Assembly: GCA_963675295.2 (NCBI GenBank)
Contig: CAXXKJ010000002.1
Coordinates: forward strand, 544,001-608,000
Origin: a bacterium
GTDB lineage: Bacteria > Electryoneota > Electryoneia > Electryoneales > Electryoneaceae
DNA length: 64,000 bases
Direction of reading: 5' to 3'
Shown: piece by piece, positions 8,805 through 15,122 of the stretch
How positions within the stretch are numbered: the stretch's first letter is position 1
How the letters are laid out: each line of letters starts with the position of its first letter
Program-made: the position numbers and the translations under genes
The notes under the pieces: generated by a model
The model's input: the letters and a program-made list of their open reading frames with translations, nothing else
What the model was told of the DNA's origin: nothing
Databases searched by the model: none

Positions 8805-9821
8805 CTATTTCAGCAACGTAGCCGTATCCACATTCCCCCCACTCAGCACCAGGCCCACGCGTTTCCCGGCGAACAGCTCGCGGTGTTTCAGCAGGGCGGC
8901 GAAGACGGTCGCGCCAGAGGGTTCGACGACCAGTTTCAGGCGTGTCCAGATCAGCAGCATCGCATCACGGATCTCGTCCTCGCTGACCAGCAGGATGTCC
9001 TCGAGGTGGTGGTGGAGGATCGGGAAGGTCAGCGTGCCGAGCGCGGTGCGGAGGCCGTCCGCGATGGTCAGGGCGTTTTTGGACGGCTGCAAGGTGCCGG
9101 TGTCGAGCGATTGTTTCGCGTCGTCGGCGATTTCCGGTTCGACGCCATAGACGGGGATGGGGAAGTGGCCACAGCGGGATGTGCTCGTGTCAGAGACTTG
9201 CAGACGCGGATGATCCGTCACGGTTTCACCATGCTCCCGATGCACGGCAATCGCGACACCAGAGCACAGCCCGCCTCCACCGACGGGAACCAGCACGGCG
9301 TCCAGATCCGGCACATCCTCCATTAACTCCAGCCCGACGGTGCCTTGTCCGGCGATGACGCGGGCGTCATTGTACGGGTGCAGGAACGTCGCACCGGTGT
9401 CGGCGACGACGTCCGCGAGGGTCGTTTCGCGCGCTTCGAGTGTTGGTTCGCACTGGACGATGCGTGCGCCGTAGCCCTCGGTCGCCAGCCGTTTCGCTTC
9501 GGGCGCGGAGGTTGGCATGACAACGTGCGCGGTGATCCCGCGCCACGCCGCGGCCTGCGCCAACGCCGCAGCGAAATTGCCGGAGCTGTGGGTGGCGACT
9601 CCACGGGACGCGTCCTCATCGGACAGGGAGAAGACGCCGTTGGTCGCGCCGCGCGCTTTGAACGAGCCGGTTTTCTGCAACGGTTCAGCCTTGAAAAACA
9701 GGTTGGCGCCCACGATTTCGTCAATCCGGCGGCTGGTCAGAACGGGTGTCCGGTGGATGTACGGACGGACTCGCTCGGCGGCGGCGAGAATGTCGGTGTA
9801 GTCTACGGCGAGCTCGGGCAC
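8805..9821 (-). CDS. PLP-dependent threonine/serine dehydratase (serine racemase-like) with an in-frame repeat-derived insertion
   Basis: QKTGSFKARGA PLP lysine, HSSGN, VPVGGGGL, TIADG, VVEPSGA, LSGGNVD. Confidence 0.9.
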   Translation of the reverse strand: MPELAVDYTDILAAAERVRPYIHRTPVLTSRRIDEIVGANLFFKAEPLQKTGSFKARGATNGVFSLSDEDASRGVATHSSGNFAAALAQAAAWRGITAHVVMPTSAPEAKRLATEGYGARIVQCEPTLEARETTLADVVADTGATFLHPYNDARVIAGQGTVGLELMEDVPDLDAVLVPVGGGGLCSGVAIAVHREHGETVTDHPRLQVSDTSTSRCGHFPIPVYGVEPEIADDAKQSLDTGTLQPSKNALTIADGLRTALGTLTFPILHHHLEDILLVSEDEIRDAMLLIWTRLKLVVEPSGATVFAALLKHRELFAGKRVGLVLSGGNVDTATLLK

Positions 9822-9940
9822 GGCGAAATCTCCACGCGAAGTTCGGACAGGCTTATATTCCCGCGCAAGGTAAGGGCCGAATGGGCCTTTGGGATATGGG
9901 CAGAATTCTCATGGGTACGACCTCTCAGGGTGAGCGTATT

Positions 9941-12505
9941 GTGACGCGCCAGCTGCGGAAGGCTTGGCGTGCGCTTGCGTTGTGTCTGCTCGCCTTAATA
10001 GTCATTACGATCCCCTCAATGGCCCAGCCTGGTGCGGGTTGGGTGGGGCCATACCATGAGTTGAACAGAGTCCAGCAGCAACATCAGAACGGCTTGGTCG
10101 AGAATTTACCTGCTACGATCTCGTGGGATCAGTGGGCGGCCGGCGACGTCCGGCTGGATTCGCTCGGGCTCCGGCGGGCGCATGTGCCTCACGGATTTTT
10201 GCCCGAATTGGAGGCGAAACGTCCGACGGTTGCGTTGGCGTTGTCCGGCGGCGGTGCGCGTGGGTTGGCTCATATCGGCGTGATCGAGGGGTTTGAGTGT
10301 GCCGGAATGCCGATTGATCTCGTGGTCGGCACCTCGATGGGCGGGGTTATCGGCGGCCTGTACAGCGCGGGCTACACCAGCGACGAGCTGCGCGGTCTGA
10401 CCCGCCGTCTCGATTGGGGCGGATTGTTTTCCGATGCGCCCTCCCGCCGCAACCTGTTCCTCGCGCAGAAGGAAACGGCAAATCAGGACCTGGTCACGTT
10501 ACGCTTCCGGCAGGACGGCGACCCGTACATCCCGGACGCGCTGGTCTCCGGCGAAACGTTATTTATCGAGACGTTCCGGCTGATGCACGAAGGTCCGTAC
10601 GCGCCGATCGGGAACGGTTTCGACGGCGGCCGGGTCAAGGTCGGGCTGGTGACGACGGACATCGTCAACGGGGAGCGTGTCTACCTCGATTCGGGCGACC
10701 TCGGGCTGGCGTTACGCGCGGTGATGGCGGTGCCGATCATTTTCCGGCCGATGCGGGATGACGGGCGGTTGCTGGTGGACGGCGGCGCGTCTGAGAATAT
10801 CCCGGTGCGTTCTGCGAAGGAACATGGCGCGGACATTGTGATCGCTGTCGATTGCGCCACTCCCACCACCGACCCCGATCCTGACCTGCCGTGGGAAGTG
10901 CTGAACCAGGTGACGACGCTGATGACGGTGCCGAATGATTCGGTGTCGCGGGCGTTGGCGGACCTCGTGCTGACGCCGGATCTGAGCGGATTCGGGAGCA
11001 CGGATTTCGATCAGAGCGATTCGTTGATCGACGCCGGTCTCGCGGTCTTTGAACAGTACCGGGAGGCATTGGACAGGATCATGCCGCCGCCGGTTGACGC
11101 GCCAGAGCTGATGGTGGACGTGTCCAAGGTCGTGCTGACACGGGACGGGCCGGGACGGCTGAAGGAACCGTTGCCAACCTTTGAGCTGGCGCCGGGTACG
11201 TATTCGACGGCGGAGATCAACCGTCACCTGACCGGCTACCTGAAACAGCTGCGAGCGTTGGATTACGGCATGGCGCGGGCGCAGGCGTCGGTGGTCGGCG
11301 ATGAATTGCGCGTTCATCTGCATCTCGGGGTGCTCAGCGGACTGCACGCGGAAGGGGTGGACTATACCCGTGGCCGGTCGCAGCTGCGTGATGTGGGCCT
11401 CAAACCCGGCCAGGTGCTGAAGACGCAGGACATCGTCGATGCGTTGTGGGACATGCACGCCACGCAGCGGTACACGACGGTGTATTGCCGGCTGGACCGT
11501 CTCGCGGACGGCACCCTCGACCTGACCTTCCTGTTCGAGCTGGCTCCGCCGGTGCGTCTCGGTGTCGGCCTCGGGTATGATACCGACTGGGGCGCACGCT
11601 ACAAGGGCACGCTGGTGATCGATCAGCCGTTGCCGCTGGTCAGTGACGAACTCCGTTTTCACGCCATGTTTGGCGAATCGCGCCAGGATTACCGGATCAC
11701 GCTTCGCGCCGACCGGATCGCGGGCAGCTACGCCGGCTGGCAGGGGCAGGTTGGGTATAACCGGATTGATGTGCCGCAGTATGACAACCAGGGCGAGCGT
11801 ACGAATTATGCCTTCCAGGGTTGCAGCTGCGCGGGCCTGATGGCGCTGTTCAACCTGTACACGTGGGGCCGGGTGTCCGGTGGGTTGCGCGGGGAACGCA
11901 TCGAGGACGCCCTCGACGGCACCGAACGGTTGAATTATTACACGGCATTTGAGCTGAGCGGCGATCTGGACACGGAGGACCGGCGTCCCTTCCCGAATTC
12001 CGGCGCGCGGATTGATGTGTCGTACAACTCGTACGTGCAGGAGCTCGGCAGCGCGCGGGCATTCAGCGTGTTCGACCTCAGTATGCGGTACACGATTCCG
12101 GTGCTGCACCGGCTGTACCTGCAGGTGGGGGCACGCACCGGTGTTGCGGAATCGACGACGCCGTCGACGCATCGTTTCGCCATCGGCGGCCTGACCAATT
12201 TCCCGGCGCTGGCGCCCTACCGTTATCTGGCGCTACGGCAGGTGGGGACGAACGCGACGCTGCGGTACGACCTGATCAGCCGGTTGGTCGCGGATGCCTA
12301 CGTACTGCTGCGCTATGATGGCGTCGCGTACGGCAACCAGCGTGACTGGCGGCCGACGCGAGAAGATATTCTGAACTCGTTCTCCCTTGGTTTCGCGTTG
12401 GATACGCAACTGGGACCGCTCGAAATCTGGTCCGCGTGGACCCCACCCGCCGAGTCGCACCACTACAACAACCGTGTCCTAGTCAACTTCGGGTATCGGT
12501 TCTAG
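9941..12505 (+). CDS. Patatin-like phospholipase fused to POTRA and Omp85/BamA-type barrel (type Vd, PlpD-like)
   Basis: LSGGGARGLAHIG, GTSMG nucleophile, VDGG; C-terminus VNFGYRF; start uncertain (9881-9941). Confidence 0.85.
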   Translation: MTRQLRKAWRALALCLLALIVITIPSMAQPGAGWVGPYHELNRVQQQHQNGLVENLPATISWDQWAAGDVRLDSLGLRRAHVPHGFLPELEAKRPTVALALSGGGARGLAHIGVIEGFECAGMPIDLVVGTSMGGVIGGLYSAGYTSDELRGLTRRLDWGGLFSDAPSRRNLFLAQKETANQDLVTLRFRQDGDPYIPDALVSGETLFIETFRLMHEGPYAPIGNGFDGGRVKVGLVTTDIVNGERVYLDSGDLGLALRAVMAVPIIFRPMRDDGRLLVDGGASENIPVRSAKEHGADIVIAVDCATPTTDPDPDLPWEVLNQVTTLMTVPNDSVSRALADLVLTPDLSGFGSTDFDQSDSLIDAGLAVFEQYREALDRIMPPPVDAPELMVDVSKVVLTRDGPGRLKEPLPTFELAPGTYSTAEINRHLTGYLKQLRALDYGMARAQASVVGDELRVHLHLGVLSGLHAEGVDYTRGRSQLRDVGLKPGQVLKTQDIVDALWDMHATQRYTTVYCRLDRLADGTLDLTFLFELAPPVRLGVGLGYDTDWGARYKGTLVIDQPLPLVSDELRFHAMFGESRQDYRITLRADRIAGSYAGWQGQVGYNRIDVPQYDNQGERTNYAFQGCSCAGLMALFNLYTWGRVSGGLRGERIEDALDGTERLNYYTAFELSGDLDTEDRRPFPNSGARIDVSYNSYVQELGSARAFSVFDLSMRYTIPVLHRLYLQVGARTGVAESTTPSTHRFAIGGLTNFPALAPYRYLALRQVGTNATLRYDLISRLVADAYVLLRYDGVAYGNQRDWRPTREDILNSFSLGFALDTQLGPLEIWSAWTPPAESHHYNNRVLVNFGYRF

Positions 12506-12903
12506 CGTCTGTTTCAGTCCTCGATTCACACGTTCAAGAAATATCATACTCGAAAACTAGCCTCGTCGATTCGGGTGTACCTCGACTCAAACAAGAAGTA
12601 TCTCCCTCTCAAAGTCGAAGTTTAGCCAACTGTTTTCTAATATACCAGATAGCAGAAATACAACTATTTTCCCTTCTATGAGCCGGGTTTCAGAGATAAT
12701 CCGGAATCTCTAAGAGCAAAAGAGACCCATGCTACGAAAGTGTTCAGAGGACACAAACTTCTTGCTTAAGTCGGTGCCGGGTTGTGAGTGAAGTAATTGC
12801 CTACCAAACAGGAAATATTTGCATACTATTGAATAACAAATATTTAATTTGCAAAATCGTCGACAAATGTTGAATAGCGAAAGCCCATCTCTTTTTCCGA
12901 GAG

Positions 12904-12932
12904 TTGACAAGCTAGAAGGAAGCTGCTATCTT
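12904..12932 (+). promoter_or_regulatory. Sigma-70-type promoter
   Basis: TTGACA-17 bp-TATCTT(TG) within an AT-rich islet. Confidence 0.75.
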
Positions 12933-12933
12933 T

Positions 12934-13290
12934 GACTTCTAAGGATACTGAGTGACACAAATGGTTTGGGGCCTATCAGGTCACAAAGCGAAAGGTATCG
13001 TTCGAAGGATCGAGTACCAGAGTGTGATTTTCTCAGTCGAAGTCCGCTCGACCTTGATGTCGCCCAAGGAGGAATATGATTACGGAGTCAAAACAAGGAA
13101 CTCTCACCAAAGCCAAGTGCTTGAGTGAGAAAACCCCCGAGTGGCTGCTCGAGGGTCAAAGAACGAGTCAGACGAGAAGGTCTGAGGCCCGTTACAACAA
13201 ACGCAAGCTAGTCATGCAGCGTCAAAGAATCAAGCCTCAGGTTTCAGATCCTTTCGTCAAGTATGATCGCAACAGACATGTACGAAAGGC
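12934..13290 (+). ncRNA. Candidate structured RNA or long leader (unassigned)
   Basis: Six consecutive complementary helices found by eye downstream of the promoter; no family recognised. Confidence 0.4.
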
Positions 13291-13296
13291 TTTCCA

Positions 13297-13590
13297 GTGG
13301 TTACAACGACAACGATAGTACAAGAACTGCTGAACCACGTCAGAAAATGTGGTGGAAGCTACAGTAGTTGGTATGCTGGCGTAGCGACAAACGCCGAACA
13401 CCGGCTCTTTGTTGACCATAACGTTTCGAAGTATAGTGGGCAGTGGGCTTATCGGAATGCAGGTTCCGAGATTCATGCGCGACAGATTGAAAAACAGCTG
13501 CTAAATCTTGGGTTCTCCGGTGGACCTGGAGGCGGAGTGTCCCCAAAGATGGTGTACGTGTATAGAAAGACAACTTCGACCAGGCCTTGA
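13297..13590 (+). CDS. Small hypothetical protein with GIY-YIG-like motifs
   Basis: WYAGVATNAEHRLFVDH, ARQIEKQLL, Gly-rich GGPGGG, C-terminal VYVY; GAAAGG RBS. Confidence 0.65.
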   Translation: MVTTTTIVQELLNHVRKCGGSYSSWYAGVATNAEHRLFVDHNVSKYSGQWAYRNAGSEIHARQIEKQLLNLGFSGGPGGGVSPKMVYVYRKTTSTRP

Positions 13591-13688
13591 TAAACCGTAT
13601 TCTTCAGTAACAAAGGAAAACATCATGGACCTCCCCTCTTTTCACGGACAGTGAAAGAAGTCCGATATTGGAAGGATAGGAGGTCACG

Positions 13689-14009
13689 ATGAAGCGTCGT
13701 CACTTCAGCCGTTCGTTCAAGGTGGAGGTCTTGCAGCGGATTGAGGACAGCGGCCTCCGCTGCAATCGAGTTGCCTTGGACATGGGTTTGGATCCCAGCG
13801 TTGTTCGCCGCTGGAAGCGTCAGTTGGATCGCGAGGGATCGGATTCGTTTCCGGGCAGTGGTCATGTTCGCAGTTCGGCAGCGAAGCAGCGCCAGCTAGA
13901 GCGCGAGAATGCTCGTCTTCGTCAGGAGAACGAGATCTTAAAAAAAGCCATGGCCTTTTTCGGGAAGGAATCGAGCATCGGTACCGATTCATCCGGGAAA
14001 AGGCGCTGA
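13689..14009 (+). CDS. IS3 transposase OrfA (HTH)
   Basis: RRHFSRSFKVEV, LERENARLRQENEILKKAMAFF; A7G slippery site at 13940-13947. Confidence 0.9.
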   Translation: MKRRHFSRSFKVEVLQRIEDSGLRCNRVALDMGLDPSVVRRWKRQLDREGSDSFPGSGHVRSSAAKQRQLERENARLRQENEILKKAMAFFGKESSIGTDSSGKRR

Positions 14010-14842
14010 TTTATCCCGTGGCTGTGATGTGCCGTCTTTTGCGTGTTTCACGCAGTGGATATTACGCTTGGCGTGACCGTGCGCCCAGCGCGCGAGCCTG
14101 TCAGAATGCGGTTCTGGTGGATGTGATACGTACGATCCATCCGCAAGTCCGTTTTACGTATGGCAGCCCGCGTATGCATCGCGAGCTTGTGGCGCGTGGG
14201 TTTGCTTGTGGACGTCACCGTGTCGCGCGGCTGATGCGGGAGCACCGCATACGTGCCAAACAACGTCGCGGGTATCGTCCGCAAACCACCCGTTCCTCCG
14301 GACAGACTGCTGTGGCGCCGAATCTTCTTTCCCGTCGCTTTGACGCCGGTGTCCCCGACTGGGCCTGGGTGGCAGATATCACCTACATTGCCACGGATGA
14401 AGGGTGGTTGTATCTAGCGGCGGTGCTGGATCTGGGTACGCGGATGATCGTCGGCTGGGCAACATCCAGGCGACTGACCCGCCAGTTGACCTTGCGCAGT
14501 CTGATGATGGCACAGCAACGCCGCAGACCCGCTGCTGGCCTGATCCATCACTCCGATCAGGGCTCGCAATACGCCAGCGACCAATACCAGGCGGCCCTTG
14601 CCTCTTGCCAGATGCTGCCGTCCATGAGCCGCAAAGGCAACTGCTGGGACAACGCTATGATCGAAAGCTTCTTCTGCACGCTGAAAATCGAAGAAGTCAA
14701 CGACGCACGCTATGGCACACGTGAAGATGCCAAACGAAGCCTGTACCAGTATATTGAACGGTTCTACAACACCAAAAGAAGACACTCAAGCCTGAACTAC
14801 AAAACACCCGCTGAAGCCATGAAGGACTTCAAACGGGTGTAG
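13940..14842 (+). CDS. IS3 transposase OrfB (DDE integrase core), joined to OrfA by -1 frameshift
   Basis: -1 frame open from the AAAAAAAG site; WVADITYI, HHSDQGSQY, DNAMIESFF, FYNTKRRHSSL. Confidence 0.9.
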   Translation, partial: KKSHGLFREGIEHRYRFIREKALIYPVAVMCRLLRVSRSGYYAWRDRAPSARACQNAVLVDVIRTIHPQVRFTYGSPRMHRELVARGFACGRHRVARLMREHRIRAKQRRGYRPQTTRSSGQTAVAPNLLSRRFDAGVPDWAWVADITYIATDEGWLYLAAVLDLGTRMIVGWATSRRLTRQLTLRSLMMAQQRRRPAAGLIHHSDQGSQYASDQYQAALASCQMLPSMSRKGNCWDNAMIESFFCTLKIEEVNDARYGTREDAKRSLYQYIERFYNTKRRHSSLNYKTPAEAMKDFKRV

Positions 14843-15122
14843 TAAAGTGTCCGTGAATTCAGGGCAAGTCCATCACTGGTAGCCCGGTCCACCGTTGGTC
14901 CGGGCTTCTCCTCTCTGGCATTCGACTACCCTTCCAGTTGAAATCGCAAAAGCAAACGTGCATCCGAGTGTACCAGCCCGTATGTTGTTTCACCTGATTC
15001 CAGACCATAAAACCACCCCGTGAAGAATGAGGAAGACGATGCGTCCGAACCGTGCGCAACTCCGGCCGTTGCCGATGATTCAGCGTGAAAGACCCGTTCT
15101 GCCGCGGCGGGTGCCCGGCTCC

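Follow-up and report, generated by a model that had tools for sequence, protein, structure and literature searches.

A small gene with a partial GIY-YIG core and a probably lineage-specific leader on a horizontally acquired islet in Electryoneaceae

We find that a short, low-GC islet in the genome of a bacterium of the Electryoneaceae carries a gene for a protein of 97 amino acids (aa), which belongs to a large family without a name and shares a partial core with the GIY-YIG nucleases. The islet lies in the window analyzed here, that is, the whole 64,000-nt stretch of contig CAXXKJ010000002.1 (assembly GCA_963675295.2) from position 544,001 to 608,000; positions below are those of the window, and features lie on the forward (+) strand unless stated otherwise. 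The original prediction for this region, made from the sequence before any database search, had proposed either a large non-coding RNA (ncRNA) partnered with a small nuclease or a translation-coupled lock on a toxic nuclease. We are confident that the 97-aa open reading frame (ORF) is a real, GIY-YIG-related gene residing on foreign DNA. For the locus as a whole we favor, as the probable explanation, an acquired islet whose single conserved gene is GIY-YIG-like and stands behind a lineage-specific leader containing an orphan ORF, with translational coupling as the likeliest form of control.

The insertion is evident from a comparison with G027, the closest genome of the same genus. There, the gene for a patatin/Omp85 protein and the following PBP4-type gene are separated by a spacer of 70 nt, as compared with 2521 nt in the window, and the genes flanking the islet are 87-90% identical between the two genomes. 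Homology to G027 ends directly after the TAG at 12505 and restarts at ~14957, and the trinucleotide 'cgt' is found at both islet junctions, a 3-nt identity. The inserted segment (12506..14956) consists of the low-GC islet of ~1201 nt, an insertion sequence (IS) of the IS3 family of 1247 nt and the 3-nt target duplication of the latter. The GC content is 0.39-0.49 at 12450-13650 and 0.63-0.69 in the flanks on both sides, and this contrast together with the 70-nt spacer bears out the foreign islet that had been proposed at 12506-13625. A small horizontally acquired islet was thus placed directly after the patatin/Omp85 stop codon and was later hit by IS3. The upstream neighbor, behind whose stop codon the islet starts, is a 919-aa protein (9746-12505) with a patatin-like phospholipase domain and a C-terminal Omp85-type barrel. 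No inverted or direct repeats were found at the ends of the islet, and its DNA had no match among plasmids and phages. The 97-aa gene is present in a single copy in this genome, is absent from all three other genomes of the genus (completeness 86-96%), and has family members in 8 of the 79 genomes of the phylum, the present one counted.

The 97-aa ORF (13297..13590, GTG start) is a genuine gene. Its family, which is large, unnamed and sporadically distributed, is related to the GIY-YIG nucleases. All eight candidates from a word-based search were homologous (E 8e-25 to 6e-17, 40-51% identity, 94-102 aa), and an exhaustive search with HMMER extended the family to 699 cluster representatives (E<=1e-3), of which 168 reach E<=1e-10; their length is 95-105 aa in most cases. 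The N-termini of the homologs align with the GTG start. In an alignment of 123 sequences, W25, Y26, G28, R36, L37, F38, H41, V43, R62, E65, Y87, Y89 and T95 are at least 90% conserved and are invariant in the close set, and G28, H41 and Y87 are invariant in all 123. A61 is also at least 90% conserved, as are G75, G79 and G80 of a Gly-rich loop at residues 75-80; this loop is GGPGGG throughout the close set, whereas P77 is variable in the larger one. As the copy in the window has every conserved residue, it looks functional. An AlphaFold2 model built with the family alignment (predicted local distance difference test score, pLDDT, 96.5) is one compact domain with the topology helix-strand-helix-strand-helix-strand.

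Family loci were gathered by IUPAC pattern scans and a genome search, whereas a search for relatives with the single protein returned none. Scanning the species-representative genomes gave 58 stretches with the gene, which span Acidobacteriota, Desulfovibrionales, Saccharibacteria, Elusimicrobia, Verrucomicrobia, Alicyclobacillus, Treponema and, as a truncated copy, a metagenome-assembled genome (MAG) of Nitrosopumilus; elsewhere, the scans located the gene on 2 viral contigs and 76 metagenome contigs. Two copies are broken: the frame of the Nitrosopumilus copy (L048) stops after 59 aa and adjoins a fragment of rve_3, and L040, whose C-terminal half has lost register, yields a product of 132 aa that lacks the GGPGGG loop. 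Three identical copies were observed on one MAG chromosome (L018, L025 and L030), and these sit in repeats 2.9 kb (99% identity) and 4.5 kb (89% identity) long rather than in a small unit. Annotation resources were silent on the family. Pfam, NCBIfam and PHROGs had no model at threshold for four small ORFs of the window, NCBIfam and PHROGs gave nothing for the 123 family members, and PADLOC-DB 2.0 at E<=1 gave no family match for the 97-, 80-, 58- and 66-aa ORFs of the window. A limited full-text search of the literature found no account of the family; in the part of PMC10853773 where Dnd genes are treated, GIY-YIG/URI nucleases are mentioned generically next to them, and the 97-aa family is not described there.

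The original prediction had called the ORF nuclease-like, and this holds in so far as the gene is real and has a partial GIY-YIG core. The Pfam profile PF01541 matches 54 of the 123 members at E<=0.1 (best E 3.9e-5), and a scan of 35 proteins at E<=0.01 gave four matches of 16.6-20.7 bits, each beginning at profile position 14 of 78. The protein of the window itself had no PF01541 match at E<=1 and was missed too by a whole-genome PF01541 search at E<=1e-6. When the family was aligned by hhalign with a reference set of small canonical GIY-YIG domains (29, taken from genomes within the phylum), the two matched with a probability of 75.8% (E 2.3e-5, 46 columns). In this pairing Y26 and G28 fall on the YIG motif, R36 and H41 on the invariant Arg and His, and A61 and E65 on the invariant A59 and E63. 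The elements expected of a GIY-YIG enzyme from the YIG strand onward are thereby present, namely the YIG strand with the helix Arg and the His (W25-Y26-x-G28, R36 and H41, all at least 90% conserved in the 123 sequences) and the metal-binding Glu in a later helix (E65). The nearest Atlas clusters are unnamed, a few of them partly with GIY-YIG, T5orf172 or MUG113. We take the 97-aa protein to be, most likely, a minimal Mg-dependent enzyme of the mobilome or defense-island gene pool that cleaves or otherwise processes nucleic acids.

The hhalign alignment starts at the YIG strand, and the second-best alignment places the C-terminal YvYrk (VYxY) strand on the GIY strand (10 columns, E 0.12). With a doubled template, the two alignment pieces remain unjoined. 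On this ground we suspect a circular permutation of the GIY-YIG domain in the family, and sequential structure aligners would miss a domain permuted in this way. No separate DNA-binding module was found in the 97-aa protein, which is one compact domain with no further Pfam domain, and a dedicated search for fused forms among longer proteins found none, which is weak evidence. The only fusion seen, P0085, is a 447-aa metagenome protein in which the family domain (residues 201-289) stands between SEFIR and TIR_2. A glycosyltransferase segment brought up by a sequence-profile search of the PDB was judged to be a chance match (best E 0.21).

The region upstream of the gene had been described as a chain of hairpins behind a promoter, and the complementary pairs that were listed for it do lie where they had been placed. 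The chain holds in part. The minimum free energy (MFE) structure of the whole leader (12934-13300) contains four of the helices, GGTATCG/CGAGTACC, TCTCAC/GTGAGA, ACCC.CGAGT/GCTCG.GGGT and CCTTTCGT/ACGAAAGG, whereas five others, GACTTC/GAAGTC, ACTGAG/CTCAGT, GGTCACA/TGTGATT, CCTTG/CAAGG and CTGAGGC/GCCTCAG, are absent from it and do not form as drawn. Nor is the chain better than chance: the leader folds at -107.2 kcal/mol and its dinucleotide shuffles at -98.8 +/- 6.6 kcal/mol (z -1.29), 11 of the 100 doing as well as the leader, and an independent shuffle run gave z -1.41 for the + strand and -1.62 for the minus strand. For the 5′ untranslated part with the first group of predicted helices (12934..13075) the z score was -1.01, and for the sub-windows 12934-13044, 13176-13245 and 13245-13296 it was -1.97, -1.92 and -1.97, respectively, the last of these being the hairpin over the ribosome-binding site (RBS) of the 97-aa gene, where 8 of 200 shuffles were as good. 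Two adjacent hairpins at 13095-13160 reached z -3.58, with none of 200 shuffles as good, within bounds that were picked around the hairpins after viewing; the minus strand of the same segment scored still better (z -4.69). As the bounds were chosen post hoc and the minus strand folds better, this segment is no evidence for an RNA on the + strand, and it points to palindromic DNA rather than a strand-specific RNA. In agreement with the statement of the original prediction that no known RNA family was recognized, Rfam 15 gave no match at E<=10 for 12300-14100 on both strands. Inside the leader, the minus strand has a terminator-like hairpin followed by a T-run at 13168-13185, and folding of 13076-13300 on that strand gave z -2.67; there may be an antisense transcript across the leader.

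Conservation of the leader was sought among the relatives of the gene. The upstream regions of 123 homologs were extracted, of which 109 have at least 400 nt; the DNA comparison left out the closest relatives, P0009-P0011 (52-59% identity), which are protein records on contigs of 1-2.7 kb. Comparing window positions 12506-13296 with the 123 upstream regions by blastn gave a best E of 0.33 over 15 nt, and the 80-aa and 58-aa ORFs as tblastn queries reached E 0.39 at best. A covariance model of the 5′ part (R1, 12934-13075, a single sequence with 46 pairs) matched only itself in 144 sources comprising 854 kb, so that neither sequence nor covariance model revealed a conserved upstream structure. 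The homolog upstream regions resemble one another only within near-identical loci. The same was observed for the 90 same-strand ORFs that end near the start codon in 126 loci; these cluster only among near-identical loci, and the ORF of the window joins none of the clusters. Many homologs start only 2-50 nt behind another gene (in L016, the distance to recA is 34 nt), so that the family as a whole cannot have a 350-nt RNA as its partner. We consider it highly probable that there is no conserved partner RNA, and take the leader to be lineage-specific. The proposed large ncRNA partner is accordingly not borne out, as the fold lies within the range of the shuffles, Rfam has nothing and no match occurs upstream of the 123 homologs or in 143 related loci.

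Much of the leader is taken up by an orphan basic ORF of 80 codons (13076..13318; Lys plus Arg 21/80, isoelectric point 11.2), which overlaps the start of the 97-aa gene by 22 nt, as the original prediction had noted. It is led by a Shine-Dalgarno (SD) motif, AAGGAGG (13066..13072), located 3 nt ahead of its ATG at 13076. This motif had been thought to be masked by the helix CCTTG/CAAGG, which the MFE structure lacks, and as its predicted unpaired probability is 0.79 it is not masked. Counting both strands, the 64 kb have AGGAGG at 14 places, of which 6 are followed by a start codon at a distance of 3-10 nt. The situation is reversed for the downstream gene: the hairpin CCTTTCGT/ACGAAAGG (13250..13289) is part of the MFE structure and pairs the GAAAGG RBS of the 97-aa gene (13284-13289), for which the predicted unpaired probability is 0.05 over 13283-13288 (five of the six RBS bases). 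The claim that this hairpin hides the RBS is therefore upheld at the level of predicted pairing. No homolog of the 80-aa ORF was present in an index of 5.8 billion proteins, the 78 other genomes of the phylum gave only two matches at E ~0.009, which is chance level, and its Atlas recognition is low, at 1283. Two apparent resemblances were examined and rejected: the nearest Atlas match, to λ N-like antiterminators, was 0.77, at chance level, and the N-terminal extension of P0010, which resembles the ORF by eye, gave a BLASTP E of 9.6 and a shuffle-test p of 0.073. The lowest p of nine such shuffle tests was 0.027, which is not significant once corrected.

Transcription of the leader would begin at a σ70-like promoter, TTGACA-17-TATCTT, with a TG before the -10 element (extended -10), at 12904..12932. 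The motif is present as predicted and is a good one: five sites on both strands have at least 10 of 12 promoter matches, and only this one combines a perfect -35 element with TGn. At a looser scan threshold, two promoter sites are found in the region and 1.8 are expected. The site is strong in its resemblance to a promoter and is a putative one. Two further features of the islet upstream of it could be an operator site or a remnant, namely an AT-rich imperfect palindrome, TTGAATAACAAATATTTAATTTGCAA, at 12829-12854, 50-75 nt upstream of the -35 element, and a 17-nt inverted repeat at 12583-12599/12757-12773, whose arms are 88% complementary and separated by 157 nt, in the first, non-coding part of the islet. 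This first part has no ORF of family signal in its 400 nt, and for 12506-12900 no coding signal and no family was found on either strand.

From these elements we suggest the following course of events for the copy in the window. Transcription would begin a few nt after 12932, and the accessible AAGGAGG would recruit ribosomes, which would translate the basic ORF of 80 codons. In doing so they would melt the hairpin at 13250-13289 that holds the GAAAGG RBS, and termination at 13316-13318, 22 nt inside the 97-aa gene, would permit initiation at the GTG at 13297. The 97-aa protein would then work as a small metal-dependent nuclease. A translation-coupled lock of this kind is plausible as a lineage-specific arrangement, for this copy only, and as we infer the coupling step from one sequence we hold it tentatively, as something that may well not operate.

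The IS3-family element (13626..14872, 1247 bp) is intact, ends in TGGAC...GTCCA and has 26-nt inverted repeats. It encodes orfA (13689-14009, Pfam HTH_Tnp_1) and orfB (14018-14842, Pfam rve of the DDE type), and a TCA target duplication is located at 13623-13625 and 14873-14875. A second, identical copy is found at G000:C2:4382455-4383701, and read depth over the element is ~2x the contig depth in two DNA runs, the same mapping confirming the assembly. With its helix-turn-helix orfA, rve orfB, TG..CA inverted repeats and 3-bp duplication, this is an ordinary IS3-family element that does not differ from its relatives. Beyond it lies a GC-rich hairpin, GCCCGGTCCAccgtTGGTCCGGGC, followed by the T-rich tail TTCTCCTCTCT (14881..14906; -19.9 kcal/mol, z -1.98, 9 of 200 shuffles as good), which a simple terminator scan did not call. 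It is likely the terminator of the islet operon, now severed by IS3. As the hairpin lies beyond the element, IS3 would have entered the islet behind the stop codon of the 97-aa gene and ahead of this probable terminator.

For the genomic context of the family, 204 immediate neighbors were scanned, 108 from genome or viral loci and 96 from metagenome loci. HTH_3/XRE proteins accounted for 13 of the 204 (mostly ~113-143 aa, one of 301 aa, most of them divergent and upstream), Peptidase_S24 proteins of the LexA/CI type for 4, and Methylase_S proteins with a single target recognition domain (TRD) for 7, of which six follow the family gene immediately on its own strand and one precedes it on the other; these counts are descriptive, without a background control, and come from loci many of which are close kin. 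Further neighbors include HsdM, a C5 methylase, DndB (2), tyrosine integrases (2), a serine recombinase and an IS1595 transposase, as well as AbiU2, an AGS_C sensor, ImmA/IrrE with DprA, and Fic/RhuM. A relative from the phylum lies divergent to what is, by motif reading only, a DNA methyltransferase with a DPPY motif. The GC content of the gene is well below that of the locus in several cases. These contexts would place the family in the mobile and defense gene pool, often under a dedicated repressor.

Two arrangements deserve mention on their own. In L016, a Burkholderiales MAG, the member is located between recA, 34 nt upstream, and recX, with a gene GC content of 0.48 against 0.63 for the locus, and this copy looks like a recent insertion into the recA-recX operon. 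In L078, L121, L125, L129, L024 and L061 the gene is followed on the same strand by a single-TRD Methylase_S protein of 194-218 aa, that is, half an HsdS, whereas the Desulfovibrio-type loci that were also grouped with this pair (L015, L049 and L050) have a 197-aa protein without a Pfam match in the same place. The family gene and the half HsdS may form a two-gene module.

Several observations weigh against the explanation that we favor. No member seen reaches the gathering score of PF01541 (best 20.7 as compared with 22.6 bits). The N-terminal GIY strand and its Tyr are missing, and in the AlphaFold2 model a helix at residues 4-18 takes their place; lacking this strand, the family is not filed as a plain GIY-YIG member, and we regard it as a variant of the GIY-YIG kind. 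Comparison of the model with the PDB by Foldseek gave no match at E<=1e-3, and in a VIA-align comparison with 48,161 chains the best Z was 4.3 and no GIY-YIG protein was among the best 50 matches. Nothing convincing came from BFVD either, where the top match had E 0.075 and a GIY-YIG protein was fourth (E 1.8). The neighbor counts lack a control, as stated above. On the side of control, the SD and the ATG of the upstream ORF are separated by only 3 nt, which is short, the RBS hairpin is marginally better than shuffles (z -1.97), and as the upstream ORF has no homolog and a low protein-likeness, coupling may not operate. An extended version of our explanation joins all of its parts, namely a circularly permuted minimal GIY-YIG nuclease, with the GIY strand moved C-terminal as the VYxY strand after GGPGGG, that forms a one-gene selfish or defense cassette across bacteria and archaea and whose toxic expression is gated here by a leader-ORF lock. 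That all of this holds together appears improbable.

Four other explanations of the locus were considered. The one that comes closest, and that we regard as doubtful yet worth keeping in mind, is that the leader and its 80-codon ORF are functionless filler derived from the donor, with the gene transcribed behind a long 5′ untranslated region and with hairpins and SD due to chance. The low protein-likeness of the orphan ORF, the 3-nt SD spacing, the near-chance fold statistics and the failure to find conservation all fit this explanation, but a perfect AAGGAGG before the ATG of 80 codons that end inside the next gene would be an unlikely coincidence, AGGAGG being rare in the 64 kb with 14 occurrences of which 6 precede a start codon at 3-10 nt, and the predicted pairing probability for the RBS of the 97-aa gene is 0.95. 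By comparison, we consider it clearly the weakest of the explanations, and very improbable indeed, that the leader is a large structured ncRNA that works with the small nuclease in an RNA-guided, selfish or anti-phage module. There is a strong promoter-like site 364 nt upstream of the gene, and of several local hairpins the two at 13095-13160 beat 200 of 200 shuffles; yet the whole stretch reaches only z -1.3 to -1.4 and folds at least as well on the minus strand, Rfam had 0 matches at E<=10, the best blastn E against the 123 upstream regions was 0.33, the covariance model of the 5′ domain found only itself in the 144 sources, many homologs sit 2-50 nt behind another gene, and the stretch is spanned by an SD-led ORF.

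The remaining two concern the protein. It may be no nuclease at all but an inert binding or regulatory module derived from GIY-YIG, for example a defense sensor or adaptor or an anti-defense protein, which we think unlikely. The absence of the canonical N-terminal GIY strand with its Tyr and of a structural match would be accounted for in this way, and the fusion P0085, with the domain between SEFIR and TIR, has it in a sensor or adaptor position. On the other hand, the residues that are invariant in the family are the catalytic ones of GIY-YIG enzymes (Tyr, Arg, His and Glu), and the second-best hhalign alignment (E 0.12) offers the C-terminal VYxY strand as a possible stand-in for the GIY strand. 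GIY-YIG enzymes include free-standing homing endonucleases, and the gene could accordingly be a selfish element of the homing type, whose nuclease cuts empty intergenic sites so that the islet is copied by repair. The precise insertion into the 70-nt spacer of two conserved genes with a 3-nt identity at the junctions, the relative between recA and recX (GC 0.48, as compared with 0.63) and the sporadic distribution across phyla are in line with homing. We nevertheless rate it as very unlikely, in view of the single 97-aa domain without a DNA-recognition module and with one copy in the genome, of loci among which no shared flanks or target motif were seen, and of the three copies of one MAG that lie within repeats of at least 2.9 kb and not in a small unit. 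We therefore retain the acquired islet with its GIY-YIG-like gene and lineage-specific leader as the preferred explanation.

A new RNA-associated nuclease system is thus unsupported at this locus, and follow-up effort in that direction can be saved. What remains is a family of at least 699 clusters, encoding proteins of ~100 aa without a Pfam, NCBIfam or PHROG name, that has the GIY-YIG core in an unusual arrangement and is encountered, in many phyla, beside genes for repressors, restriction-modification systems and mobile elements. We consider the finding to be an annotation gap with a possible structural twist and no new kind of system. Naming and testing the family would fill this gap in the catalogs of defense islands and the mobilome, and the family could show whether a GIY-YIG domain works without its first strand.

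The likeness to TnpB/IscB with their omega-RNA and to IS110 with its bridge RNA is one of superficial layout only, a structured-looking stretch beside a small nuclease-like gene on foreign DNA; here, no RNA is conserved or statistically supported, the nuclease fold is a different one and the stretch is capable of coding. Translational coupling through a hairpin that sequesters the RBS is a general mechanism in bacteria and phages, and the locus shares with it an upstream ORF ending 22 nt inside the next gene and an RBS predicted to be paired, whereas the upstream ORF here is an orphan and the arrangement is not conserved in any of 125 related loci. Phage GIY-YIG homing endonucleases of the Seg and I-TevI type have a separate DNA-binding domain and a length of ~200-250 aa. 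Their genes are like the present one in that a low-GC gene lies in a short spacer of conserved genes with a sporadic distribution, but here the protein is a single 97-aa domain. The small stand-alone GIY-YIG (URI) proteins are alike in their size of ~100 aa and in the order and spacing of the YxG strand, the Arg helix, the His and the Ala..Glu helix, and it is by its Gly-rich loop, its C-terminal VYxY strand and its lack of an N-terminal GIY strand that the 97-aa family differs from them.

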